Origin: Candidatus Methanomethylicia archaeon
Lineage (GTDB): Archaea > Thermoproteota > Methanomethylicia > Culexarchaeales > Culexarchaeaceae
Assembly: GCA_038727515.1 (NCBI GenBank)
Contig: JAVYVS010000001.1
Span: 160,001-224,000 of the forward strand
DNA length: 64,000 bases
Direction of reading: 5' to 3'
Part shown: positions 14,933 through 47,857 of the stretch, piece after piece
How the letters are laid out: each line of letters begins with the position of its first letter
How positions within the stretch are numbered: position 1 is the stretch's first letter
Notes under the pieces: model-generated
What the model saw: the letters and a program-made list of their open reading frames with translations, nothing else
What the model was told of the DNA's origin: nothing
The model's database searches: none
Translations under genes and position numbers: made by a program

Positions 14933-16225
14933 TTAGTTTATTTTTATCTTTAATTTTATTGAATGTACTGAACATGAAATGCATGGATCATAGTTTCTTA
15001 TTATTTGTTCCACTATTAATTGAGCTTCTTCTATTGGTTTACTTATGATTAATGGTATTTGATTTATGATATCTTGTTCTATATGTGCTAAGTTTTGTGT
15101 TGTAGGAGCTATTATCCTAGCTTTTTCAACAAATCCTTCATCATTCAATTTATACGAATGATATAATACTCCTCTTGGAGCTTCCGTTGCTCCACATCCC
15201 CAACCTCCCTTCACTTTATATTCTACGTATGGTTTTTCCGGTTCTCTATATTCATCAATTAATCTCTCTATCTCCAAGGTTGCATGGAATATTTCTGCAA
15301 GTCTCGCTATTATACTTTGATATGTGTTTGTTAATGGTGCTTTATAACCATTGTCCTCTATTATATCTCTTACTTCCCCCCTTAAAGTATTGTAGTTATT
15401 GTTGTATCTAGCTATGGGTCCAGTTATATAGAATCCTCTTCTCCTTATTTTGCATCTTAGCGATGTAGAGTATGGTACTTGTATTTCTTCTATTTCCTTT
15501 TCAAAATCTTCTTCTACAATGTTTAAACCTTTATTGGATATTATTCTTCCACCTATTGTTGGATATTCATTATCTTGATCTTTTAGGGAGAGGTATTCAT
15601 AATCACATTTTACCTCTGGTATCTTAAGTTTAAATGTCCATTTCAATAGTTCTTTTGCTATTTCTTGGTATTCTCTGCATTTATCCTTTATATCTTTTAG
15701 TTCTGTTTTCCTTATTACTCTATAGAATCCGCCTATTCTACATGAGATTGGATGTACAGGTCTTCCACCTAATTTTTCAATTATGTAGTTTCCGAAGGCT
15801 TTTAATCTCATTGCTTTTCTAATTGTTTCAGGTTCTATTTTAGCTAATTCTATAGCATCATTTAATCTTAGGAAGTCTGGAGCGTGAAGTAGAAATGCAT
15901 GTAGAGTATGACTGCTTATCCATTCTCCAAATAGCATGATCTTCCTCAACTCTCTTATTTCTTTAGGTATTTCAATTTCAAAGATTTTCTCTATTGCTCT
16001 GCTGCTACTATAGATGTATGGTATTGGGCATATACCGCATATTCTTGCAACTAAATCTGGAACTTCACTGTATTTTCTACCTATCAAGAATGCTTCGAAG
16101 AATCTTGGAGCTTCAAATATATTTAACTCTAATTTCTCTATTTTTCCATTTGTTATTATTAATTCTACTCCTCCTTCTCCTTCAACTCTCGTTAATGGTT
16201 TAATTTTTAAATCTATTTTACTCAT
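14933..16225 (-). CDS. hydA: Group 3b [NiFe]-hydrogenase (sulfhydrogenase) large/alpha subunit
   Basis: TRVEG, RICGIC, EAPRG, DPCISCSVH plus a short cleavable tail. Confidence 0.95.
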   Translation of the reverse strand: MSKIDLKIKPLTRVEGEGGVELIITNGKIEKLELNIFEAPRFFEAFLIGRKYSEVPDLVARICGICPIPYIYSSSRAIEKIFEIEIPKEIRELRKIMLFGEWISSHTLHAFLLHAPDFLRLNDAIELAKIEPETIRKAMRLKAFGNYIIEKLGGRPVHPISCRIGGFYRVIRKTELKDIKDKCREYQEIAKELLKWTFKLKIPEVKCDYEYLSLKDQDNEYPTIGGRIISNKGLNIVEEDFEKEIEEIQVPYSTSLRCKIRRRGFYITGPIARYNNNYNTLRGEVRDIIEDNGYKAPLTNTYQSIIARLAEIFHATLEIERLIDEYREPEKPYVEYKVKGGWGCGATEAPRGVLYHSYKLNDEGFVEKARIIAPTTQNLAHIEQDIINQIPLIISKPIEEAQLIVEQIIRNYDPCISCSVHSIKLKIKIN

Positions 16226-16977
16226 TTATTTATCACCTCTCTGAACTTTTGATTCCAATTTTCGAATTTCTTTAATAGTAATGATATGTCCATTTTACTT
16301 AACCCCTTATTTCTAAAGTGTTCCATTAATCTCTCTACTTCTGGTTTATCTGAGGGTCCATAGCATGCGTAGCATGGTCTTTGGAAGCTTGGGCATAGAG
16401 CTCCACATCCAACCATAACTATTGGTCCTAAGCATGGTTCACCTTTAGTTACAAGTACACATGTATACCCCTTTATTTTACATTGTATACATAAACTATG
16501 TGTGGGTAGGAATGGTTCTCTACCAAGCATTATTTGGCTTAATACCCATAATAATTGGCGTCTATTTATTGGGCATCCATTTATTTCAAAATCTACTTTT
16601 ACATGTTCAGATATAGGTGTTGATTTCTCTAACGTTTTAATCCACTCTGGATTTGGATAAACGATCTTTTTATAATCATTGATTTGATTACTCCAATTTC
16701 TTAATGCTTGTATTCCACCTGATGTAGCACATGAACCTATTGCTATTACATATTTTGATTCATTCCTTACCCTTTTAATTTCTTCTTCTTGTTCTGGTGT
16801 TGATATACTTCCCTCAATTAATGCTATATCATAGGGTCCTTCACTAATTTTCTTTGAAGCTTCTATGAAGTATGCTACTTCAACTTTTTCCGCTATTTTT
16901 AAGAGTTCTTCCTCAAGATTTAATAGCTCTAATTGGCATCCACTACAACTTGCAAATTTGAATATTGCCAACTTCAT
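16222..16977 (-). CDS. hydD: Group 3b hydrogenase small/delta subunit
   Basis: SCSGCQ, EGS, GSCA..GG, GCP and C-terminal Cys clusters. Confidence 0.93.
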   Translation of the reverse strand: MKLAIFKFASCSGCQLELLNLEEELLKIAEKVEVAYFIEASKKISEGPYDIALIEGSISTPEQEEEIKRVRNESKYVIAIGSCATSGGIQALRNWSNQINDYKKIVYPNPEWIKTLEKSTPISEHVKVDFEINGCPINRRQLLWVLSQIMLGREPFLPTHSLCIQCKIKGYTCVLVTKGEPCLGPIVMVGCGALCPSFQRPCYACYGPSDKPEVERLMEHFRNKGLSKMDISLLLKKFENWNQKFREVINK

Positions 16978-17792
16978 ATTTGCTCCACCTCAAAATAACC
17001 TTTTATTTTTGAAAATTGGAATACTGGTCCATCCTTACATACGAAGTATGGTCCCACTTGACAATGTCCGCATTGCCCTATTCCGCATCGCATCCTCCTC
17101 TCCATTGAAATATATATCCTCTCTTCCGGAATCTTCTTTTTAATTAAGTCTTTTACCGTGAATTTCATCATTATCTCTGGTCCACAAACCATTGCTATTG
17201 TATTTTTAGGGTCTACGTCTACTTTTGGTATTAATGTTGTAACAACACCTACAGCTCCAGCCCATTCCTCTTCCCCTCTATCAACGGTTACATGAAATTC
17301 AGTATTCCTTATCCTCTTATACCTTTCAAATTCTCTTCTATAAACTAAATCTCTTGGGGTTCTTGCACCATAAAGTATTATCATTCTACCATATCTATCC
17401 CTATTTCTCTCTACTTCCATTATTACTGGTCTTAGGGGTGCTATTCCTATTCCACCTGATACTATTAGTATATCAAATCCTTCAGCTTCCTTCACTGGCC
17501 ATGTATTTCCATAAGGTCCTCTAAAACCAATGATATCATTCTCCTTAATCTTACTGATCATTCTTGTTACTGCACCTACAATTTTTATTGTATGCATTAT
17601 CTTTCCATCTTCTAATCCACTTATTGAAATTGGTATTTCCCCTCCACCATATACGTATAATATATTGAATTGTCCTGGTGAACCCTTTACTTCACCTTCC
17701 ATTGGCGTTACATAATACGTGTATACGTCTTGTGTTTCTTGAATAATTTTATTTATCAAACCCTTTTTGAATATGTATTCTTTATAGATCAT
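16974..17792 (-). CDS. hydG: Group 3b hydrogenase gamma subunit (FAD/NAD(P)-binding, 2Fe-2S)
   Basis: PGQF, RGPYG, GGIGIAP, CGPE.MM, M.CG.G.CGHC...C.DGPVF. Confidence 0.93.
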   Translation of the reverse strand: MIYKEYIFKKGLINKIIQETQDVYTYYVTPMEGEVKGSPGQFNILYVYGGGEIPISISGLEDGKIMHTIKIVGAVTRMISKIKENDIIGFRGPYGNTWPVKEAEGFDILIVSGGIGIAPLRPVIMEVERNRDRYGRMIILYGARTPRDLVYRREFERYKRIRNTEFHVTVDRGEEEWAGAVGVVTTLIPKVDVDPKNTIAMVCGPEIMMKFTVKDLIKKKIPEERIYISMERRMRCGIGQCGHCQVGPYFVCKDGPVFQFSKIKGYFEVEQI

Positions 17793-18871
17793 TTTTCTCC
17801 ACCGCCTAATACCCTTATTATACTTTCTCTAATGTCTATTCCCATGGGACACCACGTTATACATCTACCACATCCCACACAACCTAATGTATCAAACTGC
17901 TTCTCCCAATATGAGAATTTATGTAGTAGCCATTGCCTATATCTAGCCCATAAATCAGGTCTAAAGTTTCCACCAGCTACTTCTGCATATCTATAGGTGA
18001 AGCAGCTATCCCAATATCTAATTCTATCAACATATTCATCTAAATGTGATTCATCATATATGTCGAAGCAGAAGCAGGTGGGACATACCATTGTACAATT
18101 TCCACATCCAACACATTTTTCAGAGACTTTTCTCCATAAATCTTTATTCATAATTTTCTCTTCCAATTCCTTTGGTAAGTTTTCTATGTTAAATGGAGCT
18201 TTCGCCTTCTTTTCAGCTTCCTCCATGGTTTTTATTAAACTAGTGATGTCATCTACTGATGCCTCCCTTAGTTCATTTAAAGATTTCAGTATTTTCCCAC
18301 CTTTTTCACTTCCAACTTCAAATAATACTTTACCATTTATTTTCGTGTATGCTATATCAAAATTTTCTTTAACTCTAGGTCCAGTACCCATTGTGGCACA
18401 AAAGCATGTTTTACCGGGATCTATACAATTTTCCACTATTATTGTGAGTTTTTCTCTTATGGTTTTATAGTATACATCTTCATTCCATGAAAAAGTTTTA
18501 TCCATGATTTTTATCGCAGCAGAATCACATGGTTTTATTGCAAAAAATGTTATTTCCATATTCTGGTAATCGTATGGTTCTATCCTTAATCCTTTGTATA
18601 CTCTGATAATTTTAAGTGTTGGTGGAAACAAGTATTTCTTTGGTGAATCAAATCCATGTCTAAAGAATTTCCCCTTAAATAATCTATAGTTTCCTGGTTC
18701 TTGCAAATCTTCAACATCCCTTGCTAATTCTTCATAATCATTTAATTCTTCATACACTATTGAATTTCCATCTGCTGATATCCTTGGTCCTATCACCTTT
18801 GTCTTTTCCCTTAATATTTTAAAGAGTTTTTCCAGATCGCGCTCTAATCCACTTTTAATTTCTACTATCAT
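17789..18871 (-). CDS. hydB: Group 3b hydrogenase beta subunit (Fe-S)
   Basis: PCD, CFC, CVGCGNCTMVCPTCFC, WDSC, CVGCGRCITWCP. Confidence 0.93.
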   Translation of the reverse strand: MIVEIKSGLERDLEKLFKILREKTKVIGPRISADGNSIVYEELNDYEELARDVEDLQEPGNYRLFKGKFFRHGFDSPKKYLFPPTLKIIRVYKGLRIEPYDYQNMEITFFAIKPCDSAAIKIMDKTFSWNEDVYYKTIREKLTIIVENCIDPGKTCFCATMGTGPRVKENFDIAYTKINGKVLFEVGSEKGGKILKSLNELREASVDDITSLIKTMEEAEKKAKAPFNIENLPKELEEKIMNKDLWRKVSEKCVGCGNCTMVCPTCFCFDIYDESHLDEYVDRIRYWDSCFTYRYAEVAGGNFRPDLWARYRQWLLHKFSYWEKQFDTLGCVGCGRCITWCPMGIDIRESIIRVLGGGEK

Positions 18872-19008
18872 AACATCACCGATAAGTCTCCCTCAACTCC
18901 TATTGGTATAACTTGCTTTTAAAGTAGTAATTAATTAAATTATTTATTTCTTTTCATCCGGACTTTTTATGATAAATGTTAAATTTAAATGTATGTAATA
19001 TATGATTT
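18872..19008. promoter_or_regulatory. Divergent promoter region between the two hydrogenase operons
   Basis: 137-bp AT-rich gap; TTTAAAT at 18984..18990 before ATG 19009; GGTGA SD (18880..18876) before hydB. Confidence 0.55.
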
Positions 19009-19503
19009 ATGATGAATAGTATTGAGTCATTTAAAGAGCAGAGGATACTCTTATTTGATTTTCGTAAATGTTCTGGTTGTTTTATTTGTATGTTGGTATG
19101 TTCATATACCCATTATGGTGGTTTTGATTTCAATAAATCTCATATACGTGTTTATGAGAATCCTAAAGCTCCTTTATCATTTATTAGTATGTATTGTACC
19201 CATTGTGATCATCCAATTTGTGAAGCTGCATGTCCAGCTAATCCTAAAGCTATAGTGAAATCTTCTGATACCGGTTTTGTTAAGATTGATAGGATGAAAT
19301 GTATAGGATGTAGATCATGTATATGTGCATGTCCAATATCTATTCCTCATTTTGATGAGGAATATGGTGTATGTTCTAAATGTGATGCTTGTGATGGAAA
19401 ATTTTTATGTGCAGAATTTTGTAGCACTGGGGCTTTAATGGTTGTTCCGAGAAGTAAAGCTAAGTATTATCTTGAAAATATCATGGGTGTAAAATATGAG
19501 TAG
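19009..19503 (+). CDS. 4x[4Fe-4S] ferredoxin-like subunit (HycB/CooF/DmsB-like)
   Basis: CSGCFICMLVC, CTHCDHPICEAAC, CIGCRSCICAC, KCDAC...CAEFC. Confidence 0.92.
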   Translation: MMNSIESFKEQRILLFDFRKCSGCFICMLVCSYTHYGGFDFNKSHIRVYENPKAPLSFISMYCTHCDHPICEAACPANPKAIVKSSDTGFVKIDRMKCIGCRSCICACPISIPHFDEEYGVCSKCDACDGKFLCAEFCSTGALMVVPRSKAKYYLENIMGVKYE

Positions 19504-19753
19504 TGATGAAAATTTATATCCATGGAGGAAGAGGGAGAATCCTTTAGCTTCATCAATTAGTAGCCCAATCCTTAGGCTTATTAGAATTGGACATATTCAT
19601 AGACTTCTACCCATCATGGAGAAGGAGAGGGAAAAGATGGGGTTGCAGAAACTTCCTCCATCCGCTTTTTCATCAAAGGATGCTGTATCTGAAGTTAATA
19701 TTTTACTTCAATACAACTTGAGTGATAAAATTAAAAGGAGGATTAAATTGTAA
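19496..19753 (+). CDS. Cys-free 85-aa protein resembling the C-terminal helical arm of HdrC
   Basis: GH........R...GL..LPP.......A..EV..L pattern as in HdrC tails; overlaps both neighbours and directly precedes hdrB. Confidence 0.65.
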   Translation: MSSDENLYPWRKRENPLASSISSPILRLIRIGHIHRLLPIMEKEREKMGLQKLPPSAFSSKDAVSEVNILLQYNLSDKIKRRIKL

Positions 19754-20601
19754 TGTTAAAATATTCTCTCTTTCTTGGCTGTTTTATACCTGCTATGCAA
19801 CCCTTTGCTGAAGCAGCTTTTAGAAAGATTTCTTCTATTCTCGGTATTGAATTAATTGATATTAAGGGGGCTTCTTGCTGTCCAGTATCTGATGTTTTTG
19901 GAATTGTTAGTTATGATGCTTGGGTTAATATTGCTGCTAGAAATATGTCTTTGGCTGAAGAAATTAATGGAGATATCGTTGTTTTATGTAATGGTTGTTG
20001 GGATACATTTTCCAGTGTATTGAAGAAGTTAGTTGAAGATGATAATCTTCTAAATAAAGTAAATAATAATTTATCTCTTTTAGGTAGGAAGTTTACTGGT
20101 AAATTAAAGGTTAAACATTATTTTGAAGTCTTAGTTGAAGATATTGGTTTAGAGAAGGTTCAGGAGAATGTGAAAATTCCATTAAATTTGAATATTGCTA
20201 TGCAGTATGGTTGTAAATTGTATAGGGATAATAGATTGTTAAAGTATTTTGATGAATTAATAGAGGTTATTGGTGCTAAAAAGGTTTTTTATGATGCTGA
20301 AAGATTATGTTGTGGTTATCCACTATCCCTATATTCACAAGATCTAGCTTTCTCTGAGAGAACTAAGAGGAAGATTGATTCAATAATTAAAGCTGAAGTT
20401 GATTGTATTGCTGTTACATGCCCAGCATGTTTCTACTATTTAGAGGAGGGTGAATTGAATTTGATTAAGAGTGGATATAAATGTAATATTCCAATTCTAC
20501 ATTTATCTGAACTCATAGCTTTATCCTTTGGATTTAAACCTAGTGAAATTGGAGGATCCCTACATAAAATTGGATATATGAATATTCTTGGTGGTAGATG
20601 A
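19753..20601 (+). CDS. hdrB: Heterodisulfide reductase subunit B-like (two CCG domains)
   Basis: FLGC...SCCP...ARN...CNGC and YGC...CCG...CPAC, both CCG motifs intact. Confidence 0.92.
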   Translation: MLKYSLFLGCFIPAMQPFAEAAFRKISSILGIELIDIKGASCCPVSDVFGIVSYDAWVNIAARNMSLAEEINGDIVVLCNGCWDTFSSVLKKLVEDDNLLNKVNNNLSLLGRKFTGKLKVKHYFEVLVEDIGLEKVQENVKIPLNLNIAMQYGCKLYRDNRLLKYFDELIEVIGAKKVFYDAERLCCGYPLSLYSQDLAFSERTKRKIDSIIKAEVDCIAVTCPACFYYLEEGELNLIKSGYKCNIPILHLSELIALSFGFKPSEIGGSLHKIGYMNILGGR

Positions 20602-21022
20602 TATGATTGAGGTATTAAATTCTCTAAGGGATTTATTAGGAAGTGATCTATTTGATTTTTATCGTGATCGTTATGGTAGATATTATCTTTTAACTAAAGC
20701 TGAGAGGATATTGGATGTAGTTGGTTTAATTGTTAAATTTGATGGGAGATTTATAGCTTTATCCGCCAATGATCTTGGAAGTTTAGGTTTTGAATTAATT
20801 TATCATTTTGATTTTAGTGGTTTTGGAGAACCTTATGTAGTGTCAATTAAGGTTAGAGTATCTAGAGAGAATCCTGTTATAAAATCTATTGTTAATATTG
20901 TGGAAGCTGCTAATTGGGCTGAGAGGGAAATTATGGAATTGATGGGTGTTAAATTTGAGGGGCATCCTGATCCTAGAAGATTATTCTTACCATATGCATG
21001 GCCTAAGGAGGAAGTGGCATAA
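20588..21022 (+). CDS. Group 4 hydrogenase NuoC/EchD-like subunit
   Basis: YHF, A.WAERE..ELMG..F.GHPDPRRL; true start may be ATG 20602. Confidence 0.9.
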   Translation: MVVDDMIEVLNSLRDLLGSDLFDFYRDRYGRYYLLTKAERILDVVGLIVKFDGRFIALSANDLGSLGFELIYHFDFSGFGEPYVVSIKVRVSRENPVIKSIVNIVEAANWAEREIMELMGVKFEGHPDPRRLFLPYAWPKEEVA

Positions 21023-22239
21023 TGGGTGAGAATAATTCTAAAGAAACTTCACTTAAAATTGGAGGGTTAAATTCATCTCAATTCATAGTTCCAATAGGAC
21101 CTTTTCATCCAGCTCTTCTTGAAGGTGAATTCTTTAAGTTAAAGGTTGATGGTGAGAAGATAATTAGTGCAGATATTAAGCTTGGCTATAATTATAGGGG
21201 GATTATGAAACTCGCTGAGGAAAGAGATTATTGGAAGAATATTTACTTATTTGAAAGGATTTGTGGTATATGCAATTTTACACATACATTAGCATATGTT
21301 ATGACGGTTGAAATGATCGGTGGAATAGATATACCTGATAGAGCTAGGTATATAAGAACTTTCTTAGCGGAATTGGAGAGAATTCATAGTCATATGTTAT
21401 GGGCTGGCATAGCTGTAGAACTTCTTGGATTCAAGACCTTATTCATGTATATTTGGAGGGAGAGGGAGCATGCACTTGACATCTTTGAGATGATTACTGG
21501 TAATAGAAGGCATTCAGCTATGAATACTATTGGTGGTGTTAGGAGAGATATAAGTATTGACTTAATTAATAGGATTGAAGGTAAAATTAAGGTTTTGGGG
21601 AAGAAGGTTAAAGAAATTGAGAAAATGATATTGGAAGATCCTATACTAAAATCTCGTACTAAAGGTATTGGTGTTCTCGGTAAAGATAATGCTAAGAAGT
21701 TGGGTGTTGTTGGACCTGTGGCTAGAGCCAATGGATTGAAAGTTGATATTAGAAAGATGGATCCATATGCTGCCTATAAGGATGTTCCTTTTGATATTAT
21801 TACCCGTGATGATGGTGATGTATATTCTTTAATTGAAGTTCGAATAGGTGAACTCTATGAATCTATAGGTATATGCTTGTATTGTTTAGATGTACTTAAG
21901 AGGATTGGAGGCCCTATAAAGGTTGATGTGAGTGAACTTCCACCTGGTGAAGCTATTGGAAGAACTGAAGCTCCTAGAGGTGAACTTTTCTATTATATTC
22001 TTTCTAATGGTACAAATATTCCTGAGAGAGTTAGAATTAGAACTCCATCATATATGAATGATTATGCAATTTTACATATGCTACCAGGTTATACTTTAGC
22101 TGATGCTCCAATAATAATAGCTAGTGTTGATCCATGTATGACTTGTACTGATCGTTGTATATATGTTGAAGACGTTAGGATTGGCATGGTGAAAAAGACT
22201 ACTCTAATGGATTTATCTAGAGAAGTTTGTGGTGGATAA
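21022..22239 (+). CDS. Group 4 [NiFe]-hydrogenase large subunit
   Basis: GPFHP, ERICGIC (L1), ELERI.SH, EAPRGE, RTPS, DPCMTCTDR (L2) plus C-terminal extension. Confidence 0.95.
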   Translation: MGENNSKETSLKIGGLNSSQFIVPIGPFHPALLEGEFFKLKVDGEKIISADIKLGYNYRGIMKLAEERDYWKNIYLFERICGICNFTHTLAYVMTVEMIGGIDIPDRARYIRTFLAELERIHSHMLWAGIAVELLGFKTLFMYIWREREHALDIFEMITGNRRHSAMNTIGGVRRDISIDLINRIEGKIKVLGKKVKEIEKMILEDPILKSRTKGIGVLGKDNAKKLGVVGPVARANGLKVDIRKMDPYAAYKDVPFDIITRDDGDVYSLIEVRIGELYESIGICLYCLDVLKRIGGPIKVDVSELPPGEAIGRTEAPRGELFYYILSNGTNIPERVRIRTPSYMNDYAILHMLPGYTLADAPIIIASVDPCMTCTDRCIYVEDVRIGMVKKTTLMDLSREVCGG

Positions 22240-24110
22240 ATATGATTGATCCAAGTATAATGATCTTCTTGATATTTTCGTCAGCAGTATTTTCATTGAT
22301 TCATAGAATTCCAAGAATTATTAGGGATTTCATGTTTGTTTCATCAACTCTTCTCACTCTGATAATCGTTATTATCAACTTATGTAATCCATATACTGGA
22401 TTTATATTTCTAAATATGTTTAATTTGTCAATTAGAGTTAATGGTTTTACATTATTCCTCTCTTTAATTGTTTCATTTATTAGTTTTATGGTGTCAATAT
22501 ATTCAATTGAGTATATAGAGGATGAAGATAGGGGTATCTATAGTTTTTTAGTGTTAATTATTGTTGGATGTTTAATTGTAATGGCTTTTTCATGGAATCT
22601 CATGGTCTTATTCATATTTTCTGAAATATGTATTTTTGCATCATCACTTCTTGTAACCCATTATAAAACTTCTATTTCATATGAAGCTGCTTTAAAATAC
22701 CTTGCGGTACAATTTATTTCTTCAATTTTAATATTGAGTGGAATTGGAATTTTATATGATGAAATTTTGAAGAAGGGGTTTTATGGGTTTCCAGTTTTTG
22801 ATCTTGATTTCTTATCTCAATATTTAGAGGGTAATGTTGCTATTAAGATTGGTATAATTTTCATTTTAATTGGTTTTATGGCTAAATTACCATTATTTCC
22901 AATGCATATTTGGCTTCCAGATGCTTCAACTGTGTGTCCAGCTCCTATTAGTGTTCTATTGCATACTATGATGATAAAGGTTGCGGGTATTCCCAGCTTC
23001 CTTACATTATTTAAGCTTTCAAATATTTTCCATAATCCCATTATTCTCTGGTTTCTTCTATGTTGGTTGGGGATTATAACTATGTTTGTTAATACTGTAA
23101 TGGCTTTTGCTCAAGATGATGTTAAAAGGCTTCTAGCTTTTGATAGTGTTGGTCAAATGGGTTATGTTGTGCTTGGGCTTGGTATTGGAGGTCTTGGATT
23201 TATGAAGTTTAATATTTATGGTGATGTTACTTGGCTTGAAGTTGCTATTATAGGTTTATCTTCTGGTTTATTTCACATGTTTAATCATACATTATTTAAA
23301 TCAGTTTTATTCTTTTGTTCTGGTAATATAGAGCATGAAACTGGAATTAGGGATATCAATAGACTGGGAGGTTTATTTAATCATATGCCCTTTACAAGTA
23401 TTTCAATGCTTATAGGTTCCTTAGCTATTTCTGGAATTCCATTTCTCAATGGTTTTGTTAGTAAGTGGATGATTTATAATGCATGTATTGGTGGAGGAGA
23501 ATTCATTATGGCCTTTATCTCCATTTTTACTTGTGCTTTAACTTTTGCATTATTTATGAAGGTTATTGGATCTATGTGTCTGGGCTTATCCAGCTTTAAT
23601 AAAGATGTTAAGGAGGCATCAAATATTATGATTTTCCCACCAATCCTATTATCCGTATTCTGTATAATTTTTGGAATATTTCCACATATAGTTTTGAGAT
23701 ATTTATTGTATCCCGCTATTTACTCATTGACATCAATAGTTAGTTTTCCAGTAATTGATCCTTTTGAATCATTAATTAAATTATTATATGGATTTTTTGA
23801 TGTATATTGGCTTTTTTCTCTGTTTATGTTGATATCTTTACTTATATACCTAATTATTCATAGATTTTCTCAAAAGAAGATTCCTACGGTTTCTAGGGAT
23901 AAATATCTTCCATTTACTGGTGGAGTTTTTCAAGAACCCTACATGGTGATTAATGAGATTAAAGTTTCATCAACTCCATTTACATGGTTTATACTTAGAT
24001 TTTTCAATTTATTTAGGATGTATCATGGTGGATTTATAAATTGGTATGTATTGGTGATTTTAACATTTATTGTCGTCATTTTTACGCTTACTATTTTTGG
24101 AGGTGTTTAA
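22227..24110 (+). CDS. Antiporter-like ion-translocating subunit (NuoL/HyfB/MrpA-D family)
   Basis: EAALKY, K...FP.H.WLPDA...PAP.S..L, D.KRLLA, H..FK..LF, G.P..NGF.SKW. Confidence 0.93.
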   Translation: MWWINMIDPSIMIFLIFSSAVFSLIHRIPRIIRDFMFVSSTLLTLIIVIINLCNPYTGFIFLNMFNLSIRVNGFTLFLSLIVSFISFMVSIYSIEYIEDEDRGIYSFLVLIIVGCLIVMAFSWNLMVLFIFSEICIFASSLLVTHYKTSISYEAALKYLAVQFISSILILSGIGILYDEILKKGFYGFPVFDLDFLSQYLEGNVAIKIGIIFILIGFMAKLPLFPMHIWLPDASTVCPAPISVLLHTMMIKVAGIPSFLTLFKLSNIFHNPIILWFLLCWLGIITMFVNTVMAFAQDDVKRLLAFDSVGQMGYVVLGLGIGGLGFMKFNIYGDVTWLEVAIIGLSSGLFHMFNHTLFKSVLFFCSGNIEHETGIRDINRLGGLFNHMPFTSISMLIGSLAISGIPFLNGFVSKWMIYNACIGGGEFIMAFISIFTCALTFALFMKVIGSMCLGLSSFNKDVKEASNIMIFPPILLSVFCIIFGIFPHIVLRYLLYPAIYSLTSIVSFPVIDPFESLIKLLYGFFDVYWLFSLFMLISLLIYLIIHRFSQKKIPTVSRDKYLPFTGGVFQEPYMVINEIKVSSTPFTWFILRFFNLFRMYHGGFINWYVLVILTFIVVIFTLTIFGGV

Positions 24111-25082
24111 ATGTTTTGGGATAAATTGTTAACATTCTTTGCATCTATATTTTTATCTTTTATTATTGGATGGTTTAATTTCTGGATTTTTAGGAAGTTG
24201 AGAGCTAAATTTCAATCTAGGGTTGGTCCTCCATGGTATCAGCCCTTTGCAGATATAATTAAACTTTTTGGAAAGGAATTCTTTATACCATCTCTTTCTC
24301 AAAGGTCAATTTATGTATTTTCTCCGATTTTATCTTTATCTTCAATTTTAATTTTAAGTTTCTTAATACCTCCGGGGATCCCCCATTGGATTGGGTCTTT
24401 CACTGGAGATTTAATAGTTATAATATATTTCTCAGTTATGTTTTCCTTATCGTTTATTTTAGCTGGTGTTTCTAGTGGGAATGTTTTTAGTTTTGTTGGA
24501 TCTAGTAGGGAGACTATAATGGTTTTAATTGTAGAATTGCCTTTGGCTATATCATTAATTATTCCTTCAATAATTTTAAATCGTCTCTATGGATTTCCTT
24601 CACTTTCTCTCTCTATGATATTAGAATTTCAGTTTTCCACGTGGTTTTCAATATTTCCTAATTGGTTTATATTTCATGCACCATTTTCAGCTTTAGCTTT
24701 ATTCATTTGTGTTCTTACTAAGTGTTCTTTAAAGCCCTTTGGAGATATACCTGAAGCTGAACAGGAAATAATTGCTGGTCCATTAACTGAATATGGTGGT
24801 CCTCTTCTAGGGCTTTTTGAAATTTCTAGATTACTTAGATTCTATGTCTTTCCAGCTTTATTTGTCAATTTATATTTGGGTGGTGGTGATACCTTCATAT
24901 ATCCATATAATATCATAATATTTTTAATAAAGATCTTCATAGTTGATGTAATTTTGGTAATTGTGGATTGTATATATCCAAGATTTAGGATTGATCAAGC
25001 TTTTAAATGGTATATGACCTTCTGTCTTGTTTTAACGTTAATTGATTTATTTAGATTTTCCTTGGGGGTTTTGGTATGGTGA
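24111..25082 (+). CDS. NuoH/HycD/EchB-like membrane subunit
   Basis: RK..A..Q.R.GPP..QP.AD..KL..KE, PF..PEAEQE..AG..TEY.G, PRFR.DQ. Confidence 0.93.
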   Translation: MFWDKLLTFFASIFLSFIIGWFNFWIFRKLRAKFQSRVGPPWYQPFADIIKLFGKEFFIPSLSQRSIYVFSPILSLSSILILSFLIPPGIPHWIGSFTGDLIVIIYFSVMFSLSFILAGVSSGNVFSFVGSSRETIMVLIVELPLAISLIIPSIILNRLYGFPSLSLSMILEFQFSTWFSIFPNWFIFHAPFSALALFICVLTKCSLKPFGDIPEAEQEIIAGPLTEYGGPLLGLFEISRLLRFYVFPALFVNLYLGGGDTFIYPYNIIIFLIKIFIVDVILVIVDCIYPRFRIDQAFKWYMTFCLVLTLIDLFRFSLGVLVW

Positions 25083-25639
25083 AATTAAATATTTTGAGGG
25101 AATTATTGAAATCTTTTATGAGACCTTCTACAATAAAGTTTCCTAAAGGGTCTATAACTGAAGTTCCAGAGGGTTTTAGAGGTCTTCCACAATTTGATGA
25201 GAAGAAATGTATTGGTTGTAAAGCTTGTTTAAATGTTTGTTCATCTAAAGCCATTTTTGCATATGAGGATGGAGGTCTTATGAAATTAAATATTTTCTAT
25301 GCTAGATGTATATTTTGTGGTAGATGCGAAGAAGTTTGTCCTGAGGGTGCTATTAAACTTTCACGGAAATTTGATTTAACCAGTTATAGTAGGGATGATT
25401 GTATACTTGGTATTCAATTGAGTTTAACTGTTTGTAGGAATTGTGGTAGAATCTTTGCATGTACGAATCAATTGAATAGAGTTAAAGATCGTATTTTAGA
25501 GAATATTGATCCCTCAATTAAAAGTATAGTTTTGAAAGATTTAGAGTATTATATTTATCTATGTCCTGATTGTAGGAGGATTTTAAGTTATGAATTTAAT
25601 TTTCATCCAGTTAAATTCTATGTTGTTTCAGGTGTATAG
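25076..25639 (+). CDS. NuoI/HycF-like Fe-S subunit
   Basis: T..FP...FRG, CIGC.AC...C, CIFCGRCEEVCP, extra CRNC...CPDC. Confidence 0.92.
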   Translation: MVKLNILRELLKSFMRPSTIKFPKGSITEVPEGFRGLPQFDEKKCIGCKACLNVCSSKAIFAYEDGGLMKLNIFYARCIFCGRCEEVCPEGAIKLSRKFDLTSYSRDDCILGIQLSLTVCRNCGRIFACTNQLNRVKDRILENIDPSIKSIVLKDLEYYIYLCPDCRRILSYEFNFHPVKFYVVSGV

Positions 25640-25641
25640 GT

Positions 25642-26220
25642 ATGATTGAAATCATAATTAACATTATAATGGTTATTTTAGCTATGATTATGATAGAAGT
25701 AAGGAAATTACTTTTACTTCCAATTCTACTTGCTGCACAAGGACTTCTATTTACATGCTCTATTCTTCTTGAAGGATTTAGTGAACATGTCTTTCCAATT
25801 ATTTTCTTTTCAATATTCTTTTCACCATTCATGGTTAATTATATTATTAGGAGGATTCATTTATCTGAATCAAATCCATTGCTTCCCCACATAATTTCGA
25901 TTGCTTTACTCTTACTCTTAGTCTTTCTATGTATTTCAATTCAGTTCCTTATCTTTGGTATTGTAGATTTGAATTTAATAATCATTATTATTGGTGTTTA
26001 TGGTATTATTGTGAAAACTGATTTAAGGAAGATTATTGCTTGTCTATCTATGATTTTTATGATATCACATGTATTCCTAGAATATCTCCCACTGGAATTA
26101 TCTATTATCTTAACATTTCTCTCTATCCTCTTCTTATCCTTCTTCATATTCTTCACTTTAAAGTTTTATTTAGTTAGTGGAAAGATAAGTACAAGAGATT
26201 TAAAGGAGTTGAGATTTTAA
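25642..26220 (+). CDS. Small hydrophobic hydrogenase membrane subunit (HyfE-like)
   Basis: Multi-TM, AAQG motif, C-terminal DLKELR; located inside the operon. Confidence 0.7.
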   Translation: MIEIIINIIMVILAMIMIEVRKLLLLPILLAAQGLLFTCSILLEGFSEHVFPIIFFSIFFSPFMVNYIIRRIHLSESNPLLPHIISIALLLLLVFLCISIQFLIFGIVDLNLIIIIIGVYGIIVKTDLRKIIACLSMIFMISHVFLEYLPLELSIILTFLSILFLSFFIFFTLKFYLVSGKISTRDLKELRF

Positions 26221-26666
26221 TGAAGATTTTAAAGTGGGCTAGGGAGAGATCTCCTTGGATTGCTTTATTTCATGCTGGTGGATGTAATAATTGTGATATT
26301 GAAGTCGTGGATTCTCTTACACCTAGGTTTGATATTGAACGTCTTGGAATACTATTAAAACAGAATCCGAGGCATGCGGATATACTTGTTGTAACTGGTT
26401 GTGTAACTAAGCATTCTAAGGTTTTCTTAAAGAGGATATATGATCAAATGCTATATCCAAATGTTGTTGTTGCCGTTGGAACTTGTGCTTGTACTGGAGG
26501 TGTCTTTGTGGATGGAGTAGGGGTTGAATTGAAGGAAACTCATGCAGTTATTGGTGGTGTTGATAAAGTTGTTCCAGTTGATGTTTATGTACCTGGATGT
26601 CCACCTAAACCTGAAGCAATTATACAAGGAGTAATTAAAGCTATTGGTAAACTTAAAGAGAAATAG
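26220..26666 (+). CDS. Group 4 hydrogenase small subunit (NuoB/EchC-like)
   Basis: GGCNNCDIE, PRHAD, VG.CA..GG.F, PGCPP.PE. Confidence 0.95.
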   Translation: MKILKWARERSPWIALFHAGGCNNCDIEVVDSLTPRFDIERLGILLKQNPRHADILVVTGCVTKHSKVFLKRIYDQMLYPNVVVAVGTCACTGGVFVDGVGVELKETHAVIGGVDKVVPVDVYVPGCPPKPEAIIQGVIKAIGKLKEK

Positions 26667-26718
26667 GTTTACATGTAGGTATATTTATTATATTGATTTC
26701 CCCATATATTTTTGGGCA

Positions 26719-27861
26719 ATGTTCCTTCGCGGTAAATATGGTGGTATATGTAAAATTTGTGGAATTGAAAGTAAGATAGTTTCAAGTGTTATTGGTGTTT
26801 GTGTAGATTGTTTAAGGAATAATTGGAGTGAAGCTAAGAAGATTATTTTAAATGTTCATGATAGATCTAGAGCACGTTATGGTTTACCTCAATTTCCACC
26901 TAAAAGTATTGGTGGATTAAGATGTGGTATTTGTGATTTAGATTGTATATTAAGTGTTGGTGATAAGGGGTTTTGTGGTTTAGTTGAAAATGTTAATGGT
27001 AAACTCGTTAGATATGCTGGTACTCCTATGGCTGGACTTGTTGAATGGTATTATGATCCTATACCAACGAATTGTGTTGGTGCTTGGTTTTGCCCTGCAT
27101 CAACTGGATTAGGTTATCCAAAATATGCTTTAACAATGAATGGGGAACATGGATATTATAATTTAGCTGTATTTTATGGTGGATGTAATTCTGATTGTCT
27201 TTTTTGTCAGAATTGGCAGCATAAGCAACTTGTTGTTAAAGGTAAACCTTTAATGTCTGCTGAAGATTTAGCTTCAAAAGTTAATTTTCGTACAACTTGC
27301 ATATGCTTTTTCGGTGGAGATCCATCTCCTCATGTTGTTCATGCTCTTGCAGTTTCTGAATATGCTTTAAAGAAAGCTTCATCTGAAGGTCGCATTCTAC
27401 GGATATGTTGGGAGACCAATGGTCATTTTAGTGAAGCTTTTATGAATAGAATTGTTGATGTTTCTCTTAAGAGTGGTGGAATTATTAAATTTGATTTAAA
27501 AGCTTGGTCTCCTGAAGTTTATTATACTTTAACTGGTATTGATATTGGACGTGTATATGAAAATGTTAAGCTTATCCTTAAACATTGGAATGAGAGACCT
27601 GAAGTTCCACTTTTCATGGCTAGTACACTTCTCGTTCCAGGGTATGTAGATGTATATGAAGTGGAGGGGATCTCAAGATTTCTAGCTTCTTTTGATCGTA
27701 ACATACCATATTCATTACTTGCTTTTCACCCAGATTATCTATTAATTGATCTTCCACCAACAAGTAAATCGCATGCTAAAATAGCTTTAGAAACTGCTAG
27801 AAATGCTGGTTTAAGGAATGTTAATTTAGGAAATATTTTCCTATTAGGAAACTATTATTGA
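26719..27861 (+). CDS. Radical SAM protein, PFL-activase-like (AmmeMemoRadiSam-related)
   Basis: N-terminal CxxC pairs, GCNSDCLFCQNW, GGDP, ETNG, DLKA, FHP.Y; start set at ATG 26719. Confidence 0.88.
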   Translation: MFLRGKYGGICKICGIESKIVSSVIGVCVDCLRNNWSEAKKIILNVHDRSRARYGLPQFPPKSIGGLRCGICDLDCILSVGDKGFCGLVENVNGKLVRYAGTPMAGLVEWYYDPIPTNCVGAWFCPASTGLGYPKYALTMNGEHGYYNLAVFYGGCNSDCLFCQNWQHKQLVVKGKPLMSAEDLASKVNFRTTCICFFGGDPSPHVVHALAVSEYALKKASSEGRILRICWETNGHFSEAFMNRIVDVSLKSGGIIKFDLKAWSPEVYYTLTGIDIGRVYENVKLILKHWNERPEVPLFMASTLLVPGYVDVYEVEGISRFLASFDRNIPYSLLAFHPDYLLIDLPPTSKSHAKIALETARNAGLRNVNLGNIFLLGNYY

Positions 27862-27932: not shown

Positions 27933-29174
27933 TTGATAGCTGGTGCTGAAATTCTACTATTATTTGTTTTCACAGTTTTTCTAGGTTATTTAAGTGAATT
28001 ATTTTATGATAAGACTAGAGTTCCAGATATTATTTGGCTAATTTTTTTCGGCATATTTCTAGGTCCAGTTCTACATTTATATGATCCTTCCCCATTTATT
28101 AGGGCTTCTCCAATTATGAGTATTATTGCATTGTGTATAATAGTTTTTGATGCTGGTATACATATGGATTTTAATGTTTTTCTAAAATCTTTTCCACGTA
28201 GCCTACCTTTAACCTTCCTATACTATTTTCTAACAATAATTATTGTGGGTATTACATCCTACATGTTTATGCATAACTACCTCAGTCTATTGGAATGTAT
28301 TTTGCTTGGAGCTATGTTTAGTAATAGTGCAGTAACTGTTTCTGCAGTTTTACGTAATCTAGAATCTTCTTCAAATGTTGATTTAAATAACATTAGGAAT
28401 ATTTTGTTATTGGAGTCAATATTATCTGATTCTATAGCTTTTATAACTGTAATAACTATTATTCGATTAATTATAACTCCATATATGTCTATTATTGAAG
28501 GTTTTGAGAATGTATTTCTATCTTTCATTTTCTCTCTTAGTTTTGGCTCTCTTAGTGGGATTCTTTGGAGTTTTATTTTAAATAAACTTAGTCATCGAAA
28601 ATTTAATTATATTCTTACGATGGCTATGGTATTTTTTGTTTATGTTTTTTCAGAGGAACTTGTGGAAGGGTCGGGTGTTTTATCCCTTTTATTTTATGCT
28701 TTGCTAATTGTTAATAGTGATACTCTTTTTGAGAAATTTGGTTTAAAGGATCATTTCATAGTGGATTCTAAACATTTACGTGAATTTCATGAAGAAATGA
28801 CCTTTCTTTTGAAATCATTTTTCTTTGTTTTTGTTGGTTTAATAATGCAATTTTCCTTTGAGCATGTTTTCTTTGGTCTTATAGTTTCGTTGGTAATGTT
28901 TGGTTCTAGAGTTTTATGCACCATCATTTATGATTTTATGTTTAAGCTTAATCATATTGAGAAATTTGCGATTATGTATACTTTTACAAATGGTTTATCT
29001 ACTCTTGTAATGTCTCGTCTCCCCTCGGTATATGATCCAAATAAATTGTTCTTTAAAAATTCTGAAATTTACACTAATATCTGTTTTATCACTGTTTTTG
29101 TAACTGTTCTATTAGGGATTTTTATAGCTCCATATATGATCTCAAGAAATATAAAATCTATAAATAAATGTTAA
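27933..29174 (+). CDS. Cation:proton antiporter (CPA1/NhaP-like)
   Basis: About 12 TM; VPD, G..LGP, FDAG, LES..SD, FFFV..G. Confidence 0.88.
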   Translation: MIAGAEILLLFVFTVFLGYLSELFYDKTRVPDIIWLIFFGIFLGPVLHLYDPSPFIRASPIMSIIALCIIVFDAGIHMDFNVFLKSFPRSLPLTFLYYFLTIIIVGITSYMFMHNYLSLLECILLGAMFSNSAVTVSAVLRNLESSSNVDLNNIRNILLLESILSDSIAFITVITIIRLIITPYMSIIEGFENVFLSFIFSLSFGSLSGILWSFILNKLSHRKFNYILTMAMVFFVYVFSEELVEGSGVLSLLFYALLIVNSDTLFEKFGLKDHFIVDSKHLREFHEEMTFLLKSFFFVFVGLIMQFSFEHVFFGLIVSLVMFGSRVLCTIIYDFMFKLNHIEKFAIMYTFTNGLSTLVMSRLPSVYDPNKLFFKNSEIYTNICFITVFVTVLLGIFIAPYMISRNIKSINKC

Positions 29175-45508: not shown

Positions 45509-47857
45509 TTGGATAAATTGGCTGGGGCTTTTAAGGTTAGGGTTGTTGGGATTGTTCAGGGGGTTGGCTTTAGACCATTCATATATAGGCTTGCCAAGAG
45601 GCTTGGTTTAAGGGGGTATGTGGTGAATCTTGGGGGTAGTGAAGTTGAGATTCACGTTGAAGGTGTTGATAGGGTTGGGCTGGAAAGATTTCTGGAGGCT
45701 ATGGAGAGGGAGAAGCCTCCGAGAACGGTGATAGAGAGGATAATGGTAATAGAGGTAGACTCAGAGGGGTACATGGACTTTAAAATACTGGAGAGTAAGG
45801 GGGAGATTGCATCTAGAAGCATGATTCCACCAGACACATCCATATGCGATGACTGTGTAAAGGAGATTCTAGACCCAAACAATAATGGTAGATTCTATGG
45901 GTATCACTGGAATAGCTGCGCATGGTGTGGACCTAGATTCTCCATGATGTATAGAACACCCTACGACCGTGAAAACACCTCCATGGGGAAATTCAAGCTT
46001 TGCAGTGAATGCGCTAAAAGCTACAGTGACCCCGAGGATCTAAGGAGGTTTCATGGGCAGGGGATAAGCTGCTTGAAATGTGGACCTAAAACCCATGTTT
46101 ATGGTATGGATGGATTGAGGATTGAGGTTGAGGATCCAGTGGAATTCGCTGTAAAGGTGATTTTGGAGGGTGGATTCATAGCTTTAAAGGGTGTAGGTGG
46201 ATTCCACATTGCATGTTTAGCTTCAAGGGATGATGTGGTGGCTGAATTGAGGAGGAGGAAGAAGAGGCCTCAGCAGCCCTTTGCATTGATGGCTAGAGAT
46301 TGGAGTGTGGTTTTAAGGCTTGTGGATCCACCTTTAGAGGCTAGAGGGCTTTTGGAGGGTCCACGGAAGCCTATACTAGTACTCCCCAAAAAATTGGGTG
46401 CACCAGTTTCAGAGCTTGTTGCACCTGGACTCTCCACCCTCGGGGTTATGCTCCCCTACACCGGCTTCCAAACCCTACTTTTAAATGGGATTCCAGAAGG
46501 CTTCCTAATTATGACTAGTGGGAATAGGAGTGGGAGACCTATGTGTACAAGTCTTGGCGAAGCTCTTGTAGAGCTTCGTGGAATAGTGGATTACATTGTG
46601 GATCATGAGAGGGAGATCGTGCATAGAGTGGATGATAGCGTGTTAAGGTTTACTGATGGTAGACCAGTCTTCCTCAGGAGGGGGAGGGGTTATGCTCCTG
46701 AATGGGTGGAGGTAGGCTTCAGAATCGTGGAGGCAGCGGCTGTGGGAGGTGAACTTCAAAGTGTGGGTGGAGTTGGATTTGAGGATAAGATTGTTTTAAC
46801 ACAGTTCATTGGGGATGTGGATGAACCAGCCCAGCTATGGAGTTTAGAACGTGAATTAAAATGGCTTATAGAGGTTTATGGGCTTAAACCTAGGATAATA
46901 GCCTTAGATATGCATCCACAATACTCCAATAGGCTGGTGGCGGAAAGGCTAGGTGAAACTTATGGTGCTAGGCTAATTGAAGTTCAACATCACCATGCCC
47001 ATGCAGCCACTGTAATAGGCGAATTAAAGGCTGAATCAAGCGAGAGGTTTATGGCTATAACCATTGATGGAACCGGATATGGTGAGGGAGGGGAAATCTG
47101 GGGTGGAGAAATACTATTGGCATCCCTGGAAAGCTATAAGCGTGTGGGAAGCATAAAACCCTTCACACTGCCAGGTGGAGATACAGCTGCAAGACACCCA
47201 GCAAAAACATTGGTAAGCCTATTAGCCTCAAATGGATACAGTGAGGAAGAAACCATTGAAATCCTATATAGACATGGAGTCATAGATGGATTCCCCCATG
47301 GAATAATAGAGGCGAAACTAACCCATAGATTAGCAGCCTCCAAAAGAGGATTTAAAACCTCAAGTCTAGGCAGGATTCTAGACGCCTTCTCCACACTCCT
47401 AGGAGCATGCAAAGAGAGAACCTATGAGGGGGAGCCAGCAATAAAACTTGAAGCCCTCGCAGACAATGTAAACCAGCCACCCATAGACCAAGAACCAAGA
47501 ATAACCATGGGTGAAAACAGACTCCTAATAGATGTAAAACCCCTATTGGAATGGACACTGGAAAACCTCAACACCATAGAAAAGGGTAGAATAGCCTTAA
47601 CCATACAATACAACCTCGGAAAAACCCTGGCGAAAACAGTCCTAGAAGCCTTAAAGGGGAGGAGAAACATTAGAAGAGAAGTAATAGTAAGTGGAGGAGC
47701 AGCAGTAAACACCCACATAATCAAAGGAATAAAAAGTATACTGAGAAAAGAAGGACTAGAGGTAATCCTACCATCAAAAACACCACCAGGAGACGGAGGA
47801 ATAGCCCTAGGACAAATACTAGTTGCATCTAGTGTAAACTTCAAATCCCAAATTTAA
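45509..47857 (+). CDS. hypF: Hydrogenase maturation carbamoyltransferase HypF
   Basis: G.VQGVGFRPF, two CxxC-CxxC zinc fingers, KG.GGFH, MTSGN, QHHHAH, DGTGYG, GDGG.ALGQ; TATA-like TTTAAAT at 45482. Confidence 0.97.
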   Translation: MDKLAGAFKVRVVGIVQGVGFRPFIYRLAKRLGLRGYVVNLGGSEVEIHVEGVDRVGLERFLEAMEREKPPRTVIERIMVIEVDSEGYMDFKILESKGEIASRSMIPPDTSICDDCVKEILDPNNNGRFYGYHWNSCAWCGPRFSMMYRTPYDRENTSMGKFKLCSECAKSYSDPEDLRRFHGQGISCLKCGPKTHVYGMDGLRIEVEDPVEFAVKVILEGGFIALKGVGGFHIACLASRDDVVAELRRRKKRPQQPFALMARDWSVVLRLVDPPLEARGLLEGPRKPILVLPKKLGAPVSELVAPGLSTLGVMLPYTGFQTLLLNGIPEGFLIMTSGNRSGRPMCTSLGEALVELRGIVDYIVDHEREIVHRVDDSVLRFTDGRPVFLRRGRGYAPEWVEVGFRIVEAAAVGGELQSVGGVGFEDKIVLTQFIGDVDEPAQLWSLERELKWLIEVYGLKPRIIALDMHPQYSNRLVAERLGETYGARLIEVQHHHAHAATVIGELKAESSERFMAITIDGTGYGEGGEIWGGEILLASLESYKRVGSIKPFTLPGGDTAARHPAKTLVSLLASNGYSEEETIEILYRHGVIDGFPHGIIEAKLTHRLAASKRGFKTSSLGRILDAFSTLLGACKERTYEGEPAIKLEALADNVNQPPIDQEPRITMGENRLLIDVKPLLEWTLENLNTIEKGRIALTIQYNLGKTLAKTVLEALKGRRNIRREVIVSGGAAVNTHIIKGIKSILRKEGLEVILPSKTPPGDGGIALGQILVASSVNFKSQI

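Follow-up and report, generated by a model that had tools for sequence, protein, structure and literature searches.

We analyzed a 64,000-nucleotide (nt) stretch of DNA (hereafter, the window; positions 160,001 to 224,000 of contig JAVYVS010000001.1, assembly GCA_038727515.1) from a Candidatus Methanomethylicia archaeon of the order Culexarchaeales, a nonmethanogen of hot springs. The operon at 19009-26666 combines genes for a group 4 membrane-bound [NiFe] hydrogenase with hdrB, which specifies a heterodisulfide reductase (Hdr) subunit. We propose, with moderate confidence, that its products form one membrane complex built like formate hydrogenlyase (FHL), in which HdrB replaces formate dehydrogenase and H2 serves to reduce some disulfide distinct from CoM-S-S-CoB (the heterodisulfide of coenzymes M and B), a reaction linked in some way to ion movement. 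Clusters of this type have been predicted from genomes before. Kohtz et al. (2022; PMC9723716) described the HdrB-associated hydrogenases Ehd (Methanomethylicia), Ehe (Culexarchaeia), and "Ehd-like," and Appler et al. (2024; 10.1101/2024.07.04.601786) reported Asgard group 4l/4q complexes that join Mbh-like subunits to a peripheral heterodisulfide reductase domain.

The preliminary description of this DNA had postulated a tight operon of ten genes with an intact NiFe site and neither HdrA nor Mvh, a picture that our analysis upholds. All ten open reading frames (ORFs) on the + strand were recovered in the ORF map at the expected coordinates and with the expected overlaps, and Pfam and NCBIfam yielded matching family assignments for all but the mini-HdrC and the 192-amino-acid membrane protein, neither of which has a Pfam family. 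The first five overlap in series by 8 nt (polyferredoxin/mini-HdrC), 1 nt (mini-HdrC/hdrB), 14 nt (hdrB/nuoC), and 1 nt (nuoC/nuoD). Further along, nuoD and nuoL overlap by 13 nt, nuoL and nuoH abut, nuoH and nuoI overlap by 7 nt, nuoI is separated by 2 nt from a membrane protein ORF, and the latter overlaps nuoB by 1 nt. The large subunit carries both pairs of metal ligands (RICGIC...H and DPCMTC..R), and the two motifs are invariant among 22 relatives. NuoD-type ligand motifs together with NuoB-, NuoI-, NuoH-, and antiporter-type subunits in one cluster define a group 4 enzyme. The best solved relatives of the large subunit are MbhL (6CFW_L, 282 bits) and HycE (7Z0S_E, 268 bits). The antiporter-like subunit aligns to NuoL over nearly its full length (TIGR01974 covers residues 65-621), with MbhH (6CFW_H, 192 bits), MrpA, and HycC as solved relatives. 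For NuoI, the best NCBIfam match is the FHL Fe-S subunit (124 bits, under the cut-off), and its C-terminal extension contributes four further invariant Cys (C120, C123, C163, and C166), which may constitute an additional metal site.

The 192-amino-acid (aa) membrane subunit was less easily classified. "HyfE-like," as it was originally called, is only roughly right. A profile of five orthologues finds a weak match to MbhG/NuoK-type chains in its C-terminal part (E 0.02), and E19, KTDxRK, and H143 are invariant across five loci. No firm family emerged, however: a Foldseek search of its model (pLDDT 84.7) against PDB returned no match at E <= 0.001, and the VIA-align Z scores of the N-terminal half against NuoJ/ND6/MbsD chains (6.7-8.1; all Z <= 9) fall in the noise range for helical bundles. 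The protein is probably a NuoK/MbhG-like segment preceded by a NuoJ/MbhD-like N-terminal half, the latter assignment being tentative.

The makeup of the hydrogenase core also invites a different interpretation, in our view unlikely but a serious rival, namely, a ferredoxin-oxidizing, H2-evolving, ion-exporting enzyme of the Mbh/FHL type. In such an enzyme, the polyferredoxin and HdrB would provide a second, nonpumping outlet or inlet, and electrons from reduced ferredoxin would pass to protons or to a disulfide as dictated by H2 pressure and disulfide supply. This interpretation fits with MbhL and MbhH of the ferredoxin-dependent, H2-evolving Mbh, along with HycE, being the closest solved relatives, with the Mbh-like subunits of the Asgard complexes (10.1101/2024.07.04.601786), and with the published view that members of the lineage are anaerobic generalists, possibly producing H2 (PMC9723716). 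It offers no explanation for the tight and widespread conservation of HdrB alongside the core.

The first gene of the operon bears on the same question. PDB relatives of the polyferredoxin are the Fe-S subunits of AOR/WOR5 and HycB (E 4.6e-8 for HycB), and all 16 Cys are invariant in orthologues. Prediction of the NuoI-polyferredoxin complex gave an ipSAE of 0.83, vs 0.00 for the best of three controls; runs shared at least 84% of contacts, and the partners had pLDDT values of at least 86. Of 80 solved complexes, 58 attain this docking mark, as do 2 of 110 mismatched pairs; both counts are rough because custom alignments were used. The predicted interface joins residues 128-184 and the cluster loops of NuoI to the second and third cluster regions of the polyferredoxin. 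Therefore, the polyferredoxin preceding HdrB is predicted to dock on the hydrogenase arm at the C-terminal extension of NuoI, as in FHL, in line with the preliminary interpretation. The score may nonetheless reflect likeness to the solved HycB-HycF pair (7Z0S) rather than binding by these particular copies. In the model, the polyferredoxin covers the NuoI surface at which ferredoxin would dock in Mbh, a point that speaks against the ferredoxin-oxidizing interpretation.

Downstream of the polyferredoxin gene, an 85-aa ORF was aptly labeled "mini-HdrC." A profile of its family matches HdrC residues ~122-181 (8rvu_c, E 2.3e-7; 5odc_C, E 2e-4). The family shows 36-72% identity across four related loci and the paralogue in the same genome, and its YPxRK, GH, and PP motifs are invariant. 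It contains no Cys. The N-terminal HdrC ferredoxin domain, with its two [4Fe-4S] clusters, is absent, and the overlap of the ORF start with the upstream gene leaves no room for it. By its sequence, the protein is a cluster-less remnant of the HdrC tail and, by analogy with solved complexes, would wrap around HdrB. Equivalent small ORFs were named "EhdD/hdrC" and "EheH/HdrC?" by Kohtz et al. (2022; PMC9723716).

HdrB itself aligns end to end with HdrB of M. thermolithotrophicus (5ODC_B, 220 bits) and keeps both CCG motifs and all ten cluster Cys. Its score against TIGR03288 (238.3 bits) is under the equivalog cut-off of 345.15. In 5ODR, as analyzed in a 2026 study of Hdr with substrate analogues (PMC13261682), G46 and G198 contact the CoM sulfonate through their backbone NH groups, R201 contacts the CoB carboxylate, and R14 and R240 contact the CoB phosphate; this numbering is consistent with the 5ODC_B sequence. 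None of the five positions is kept in the window HdrB, where they correspond to M15 (R14), D47 (G46), L191 or a gap (G198), Y194 or S (R201), and E232 (R240). After the second CC, the sequence reads CCGYPLSLYSQ, with no Arg or further Gly under either alignment. All hydrogenase-linked HdrBs compared (Asgard, Bathyarchaeia, Hadarchaeota, Baldr, Ehe, and Ehd) share a CCG(Y/F/V/L)(P/L) motif with a two-residue deletion, vs CCGxGGGVR in canonical HdrB, and an unlinked HdrB on one of those contigs retains the canonical R, G, and GGGVR pattern. In the methanogen Methanosuratincola verstraetei, unlike in the window, the HdrB of Ehd retains three such positions (K14, G46, and R240).

The enzyme could in principle reduce CoM-S-S-CoB itself, the role that has been proposed for Ehd in the methanogens among the Methanomethylicia. 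Its HdrB is, among solved structures, closest to methanogen HdrB, and ComB is encoded elsewhere in the genome. This reading nevertheless appears extremely improbable in light of the replacement of all five contacts, of which methanogen Ehd keeps three, and of the gene content of the host. The genome comprises 1.586 Mb in 12 contigs (32.9% GC) and is 93.6% complete. The absence of methanogenesis genes, first noted for the window alone, extends to this whole assembly, in which neither mcrA nor comA was found, and Culexarchaeia are reported to lack mcr and to have incomplete CoM/CoB synthesis (PMC9723716). The lost pocket, together with missing mcrA and comA, thus argues that the window HdrB does not use CoM-S-S-CoB and strengthens the original suggestion of a different disulfide. 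As to what that disulfide might be, we have leads rather than findings: protein-bound lipoate, suggested by GcvH in a paralogous cluster of the same genome, and CoA-type or sulfane disulfides, suggested by the neighboring genes discussed below. DsrC-type trisulfide was also considered and finds no support here, as the 93.6% complete genome yielded no DsrC (PF04358).

Relatives of the locus were retrieved with an alignment query; a single large-subunit query had found none among genome contigs. The closest large-subunit proteins come from one JGI contig (82% identity) and from Asgard metagenome-assembled genomes (MAGs) of Odin-, Hod-, Hermod-, and Promethearchaeota (62-64%), followed by fused NuoCD proteins of Bathyarchaeia (50-58%). 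The ten-gene order, including the small ORF, is identical in a Hodarchaeota locus (L103), an Odinarchaeota locus (L106), and a vent contig (L104). It is also kept in Hermodarchaeota (L001), with no intact nuoB ORF listed, and over the first six genes of the JGI contig (L105), which then ends. Synteny of HdrB thus holds across all the close relatives inspected, and the preliminary interpretation withstands the test that a lack of such synteny would have refuted it. Among the 80 loci listed, HdrB linkage is confined to the ten best-scoring archaeal ones and is seen in no bacterial or more distant archaeal locus. In Bathyarchaeia loci, hdrB is placed between nuoC and nuoD. The module of HdrB, polyferredoxin, and small ORF also occurs in the Ehd locus of Methanosuratincola and in an Ehe-like cluster of the window's own genome. 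The 61 other species-representative genomes of the class contain no large subunit more than 56% identical, and their best matches are fused forms.

Adjacency of genes alone is no proof of a complex, and the polyferredoxin, mini-HdrC, and HdrB might be a separate soluble enzyme that is cotranscribed with the hydrogenase and communicates with it via free ferredoxin or not at all. We regard this as improbable given the translational overlaps, the gene order that this Thermoproteota genome shares with three Asgard classes, the location of hdrB between nuoC and nuoD in Bathyarchaeia, and the predicted docking of the polyferredoxin on NuoI, for which FHL is a solved look-alike. What can be said for a separate enzyme is that the phylogenies of HdrB and of the hydrogenase are incongruent, i.e., the modules are able to move independently. 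In an IQ-TREE large-subunit tree (51 rows), the window sequence and the 82% identical contig are sister to eight Asgard/vent sequences (support 100/99), and a quick tree of 80 rows agrees; no Drh sequence is in the tree. Ehd of Methanosuratincola/Methanomethylicus, Ehe of Culexarchaeia (including the genome's own copy), fused Odin/Baldr forms, and some Bathyarchaeia make up a separate fused-NuoCD clade, and the window large subunit falls outside this Ehd-Ehe clade. In the HdrB tree, by contrast, the window protein, Asgard clade-B HdrBs, and Culexarchaeia Ehe HdrBs form a 99%-supported clade. Since the Ehe HdrB groups with clade-B HdrBs and the Ehe large subunit does not, these trees indicate exchange of modules rather than strict coevolution of Hdr and hydrogenase. 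Direct acquisition of the operon from Asgard archaea was considered but not adopted because the large-subunit tree places the window lineage sister to, not within, the Asgard group; the HdrB tree gives no resolution on this point.

The cluster comprises the hydrogenase, HdrB/HdrC-like ORF, and antiporter by which "Ehd-like" loci are recognized, so the link to such clusters of TACK archaea made in the preliminary description holds. By synteny and phylogeny, the label "Ehd-like" applies rather than Ehd or Ehe proper. The host itself very probably belongs to the species of JZ-Bin-30 (Ca. Culexarchaeum jinzeense; 1.48 Mb, 32.4% GC; PMC9723716), and the operon would then be that genome's published cluster. 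This match is drawn from the similar size and GC content (about 1.5 Mb and about 33%) and from the co-occurrence of an Ehe cluster with HdrA2B2C2, SdhA, and GcvH and a second HdrB-hydrogenase, the latter absent from the rest of the class. Kohtz et al. (PMC9723716) devote one sentence to the second, "Ehd-like" HdrB-hydrogenase of JZ-Bin-30 and place it with Bathyarchaeia and Methanomethylicia, unlike our tree, in which the nearest relatives of the large subunit are Asgard sequences.

The counterpart Ehe cluster lies on another contig (C2:290669-303628; L089:4669-17628). Its genes specify, in order, an HdrA-MvhD fusion, HdrC, HdrB, a small Fe-S protein, an SdhA-like flavoprotein, and GcvH, followed by a polyferredoxin, a 92-aa mini-HdrC paralogue, HdrB, NuoB, an antiporter-like subunit, fused NuoCD, and NuoH. 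Gene for gene, this arrangement identifies it as the "Ehe" cluster of Kohtz et al. (2022; PMC9723716). The best named matches of its fused large subunit are from "Ca. Methanomethylicia archaeon" (87% and 74%) and "archaeon GB-1867-035," the latter a Culexarchaeia MAG of the same study (PMC9723716). Outside the operon, the genome contains two hdrA genes, two further hdrBC pairs, and this second HdrB-linked hydrogenase, along with Mvh/Vhu-like ADG genes, a third, unlinked group 4 hydrogenase, and two copies of GcvH; CCG proteins number four. A single CoA-disulfide-reductase-like gene (540 aa, contig C5) lies away from the operon. ComB (2-phosphosulfolactate phosphatase) is encoded upstream of the third HdrC/HdrB pair, with one 140-aa ORF in between (L088:3159-5821; C2:273158-275820), and LarA-like and HdrA genes are found nearby on the opposite strand.

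Two neighbors of the ten-gene cluster recur among its relatives (Table 1). The four genes of a group 3b (sulfhydrogenase-type) hydrogenase, divergent in the window, are directly upstream and codirectional in the Hodarchaeota (L103:1847-5873) and Odinarchaeota (L106:68-4095) loci, and an unannotated 426-aa ORF occupies the corresponding position in Hermodarchaeota; from this arrangement, the two hydrogenases appear to travel together. A flavoprotein resembling CoA-disulfide reductase (CoADR) and NSR directly follows nuoB in the four Asgard/vent loci that extend far enough, and its presence may point to the type of disulfide involved. The CoADR/NSR-like and group 3b sulfhydrogenase neighbors are the source of the CoA-type/sulfane disulfide lead.

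Table 1. Features of the window and of related loci (window coordinates unless a locus is given)
Feature	Position	Strand	Matches and remarks
Group 3b (sulfhydrogenase-type) [NiFe] hydrogenase, four genes	14933..18871	-	ShyA/ShyB-like, under cut-offs
Intergenic region, 137 bp, AT-rich	18872..19008		Between the operon and the divergent group 3b hydrogenase operon
HycB/DmsB-type polyferredoxin, 164 aa	19009..19503	+	16 Cys, four [4Fe-4S] motifs; Fer4_11, E 6e-14
Mini-HdrC, 85 aa	19496..19753	+	Cys-free HdrC C-terminal tail homologue; no Pfam family
HdrB-type subunit, 282 aa	19753..20601	+	Two CCG motifs, 10 Cys, two noncubane [4Fe-4S]; CCG, E 1.4e-23
NuoC-like subunit, 144 aa	20588..21022	+	Separate from large subunit; Complex1_30kDa, E 1e-23
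NuoD-type [NiFe] large subunit	21022..22239	+	Complex1_49kDa and NiFeSe_Hases
Single antiporter-like subunit, 627 aa	22227..24110	+	NuoL/MrpA/MbhH-like; Proton_antipo_M, E 4e-50; Proton_antipo_N
NuoH-like membrane subunit, 323 aa	24111..25082	+	NADHdh, E 2e-63
NuoI/HycF-like 2x[4Fe-4S] subunit, 187 aa	25076..25639	+	C-terminal extension; NCBIfam formate hydrogenlyase Fe-S subunit
Membrane subunit, 192 aa	25642..26220	+	Seven helices; no Pfam family
NuoB-like small subunit, 148 aa	26220..26666	+	Cys of proximal [4Fe-4S] cluster; Oxidored_q6, E 3e-31
CoADR/NSR-like flavoproteins of relatives	L103:13744-15120; L104:7777-9147; L001:15629-17008; L106:11906-12588		TIGR03385, 297-412 bits, under cut-off

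These traits can be assembled into a broader scenario, which we regard as doubtful but worth stating. The window and Asgard clusters might represent a distinct HdrB-hydrogenase lineage with unfused NuoC and NuoD, a fixed gene order, and a substrate pocket remodeled for a noncoenzyme S-S compound. As a redox island linking H2 to sulfur or disulfides, shared between Asgard archaea and one Culexarchaeum lineage by lateral transfer, it would include the group 3b sulfhydrogenase and, in Asgards, also the CoADR/NSR-like reductase. In HdrBs of this lineage, the remodeling is conserved: position 14 is hydrophobic and position 46 acidic, two residues are deleted at CCG(Y/F)P, and position 240 is occupied by Lys, Asn, Arg, or Glu. 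Such a pocket would suit a protein-bound lipoyl disulfide (GcvH-type) or sulfane/polysulfide.

In the FHL-like complex that we favor, NuoD-like, NuoB-like, and NuoC subunits would form a core on a short membrane arm made of NuoH, one NuoL-like, and one NuoJ/K-like subunit. The HycF-like NuoI would hold the four-cluster polyferredoxin on its C-terminal extension, and the polyferredoxin would in turn wire HdrB, clamped by the cluster-less remnant of the HdrC tail. This chain would let electrons move between the NiFe site and HdrB with its two noncubane [4Fe-4S] clusters, such that H2 reduces a disulfide or a related S-S compound in a manner coupled somehow to ion movement through the arm. We infer four parts of this scheme, i.e., the contact between HdrB and the polyferredoxin, the direction of electron flow, the ion coupling, and the substrate. 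A similar combination of H2 oxidation, disulfide reduction, and outward ion translocation is the published reading of Ehd, Ehe, and Ehd-like complexes (PMC9723716) and of the Asgard 4l/4q complexes (10.1101/2024.07.04.601786), and Ehg has been read in the same way.

Several considerations weigh against our proposal, the first of which is energetic. Group 4 enzymes of known function couple ion export to proton reduction, and H2 oxidation is driven by ion import, as in the reverse operation of Ech/Eha-type enzymes. By reversibility, H2 oxidation at the group 4 site would be expected to accompany ion import, and it is the ferredoxin-oxidizing, H2-evolving direction that agrees with the known coupling sense. 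In addition, the exergonic transfer to the disulfide would take place far from the membrane, where the peripheral arm ends, so that an ion-pumping H2:disulfide oxidoreductase is a mechanistic conjecture. The contact of HdrB with the polyferredoxin is suggested by homology to the HdrC tail and by conserved adjacency. Similarly, with a sub-cut-off HdrB score and a remodeled pocket, disulfide chemistry is predicted from the conserved cluster ligands. Given the incongruent trees of HdrB and hydrogenase, members of the family may differ in function. Finally, this complex and all related ones are predictions from genes; our literature search found no expression data for Ehd in cultured methanogens.

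Comparison with known systems helps to delimit the predicted complex. Like Ehd, Ehe, and Ehd-like clusters, the operon pairs a group 4 core and one antiporter-like subunit with HdrB, a polyferredoxin, and a small HdrC-like ORF, here in a nonmethanogen. Unlike in Ehd and Ehe, its NuoC and NuoD are unfused. In subunit set and in closest kin (Odin, Hermod, and Hod sequences from loci with the same ten-gene order), it agrees with the Asgard complexes reported as 4l/4q and is a candidate relative of these subclades. The host, however, belongs to Thermoproteota (Culexarchaeales-like), and a radical S-adenosylmethionine (SAM) gene and an NhaP-type antiporter are encountered where the Asgard loci have the CoADR-like flavoprotein after nuoB. 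The likeness to Escherichia coli FHL-1 (7Z0S) extends to the large, small, HycF-type, NuoH-like, and single antiporter-like subunits and to the HycB-type four-cluster polyferredoxin that bridges to a peripheral catalytic subunit. This peripheral subunit is the molybdoenzyme FdhF in FHL-1 but HdrB plus an HdrC tail in the window, which further differs in its unfused NuoC/NuoD and the extra NuoJ/K-like subunit. The redox partner of the window complex is expected to be of high potential (S-S), unlike the low-potential formate of FHL-1. The HdrB fold, the ten ligands of the noncubane clusters, and the C-terminal tail of HdrC are common to the soluble HdrABC-MvhAGD of methanogens (5ODC). In contrast to that complex, the operon contains no HdrA and hence has no flavin-based bifurcation of its own, an unrelated four-cluster polyferredoxin stands in for the HdrC ferredoxin domain, and the CoM/CoB pocket is lost.

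The surroundings of the operon add a few observations. The AT-rich intergenic region upstream is presumed to be a bidirectional promoter region. Downstream, a radical SAM gene (26644-27861) nominally overlaps nuoB and has weak AmmeMemoRadiSam and glycyl-radical-activase-like matches. It was rejected as an operon member because its domain begins at approximately residue 170, an in-frame ATG is available at 26719, and the gene is missing from the relatives' loci. A TATA-like AT-rich stretch precedes this ATG, and translation probably starts there. Next comes an NhaP/Kef-type cation:proton antiporter gene (27933-29174), likewise not kept in the relatives' loci; its product could balance ions moved by the hydrogenase. 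HypF is encoded at 45509-47857. Between 46000 and 64000, the + strand shows a strong excess of A over T (AT skew 0.4-0.5) over a run of + strand genes, among them genes for ATPase and platform proteins of the T2SSE/T2SSF type (archaeal pilus or archaellum-like). An Rfam scan of the window gave no matches.

The operon does not represent a new kind of enzyme; it is a clean and complete example in a small genome that also harbors a paralogous Ehe-like cluster. New are the loss of the CoM/CoB pocket relative to methanogen Ehd, with residue-level evidence against CoM-S-S-CoB as the substrate, the affinity to Asgard sequences with a fixed order of the ten genes, and the predicted FHL-like docking, i.e., details that are useful but incremental. 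HdrB-linked membrane hydrogenases would unite two energy-conserving modules, the ancestor of complex I and the heterodisulfide reductase of methanogens, in organisms that do not make methane, including Asgard relatives of eukaryotes. Once known, the substrate and the sense of ion coupling would reveal how such anaerobes recycle the disulfide needed by their HdrABC-type bifurcating enzymes and would help to understand the first coupling of complex I-like machines to acceptors of high potential.

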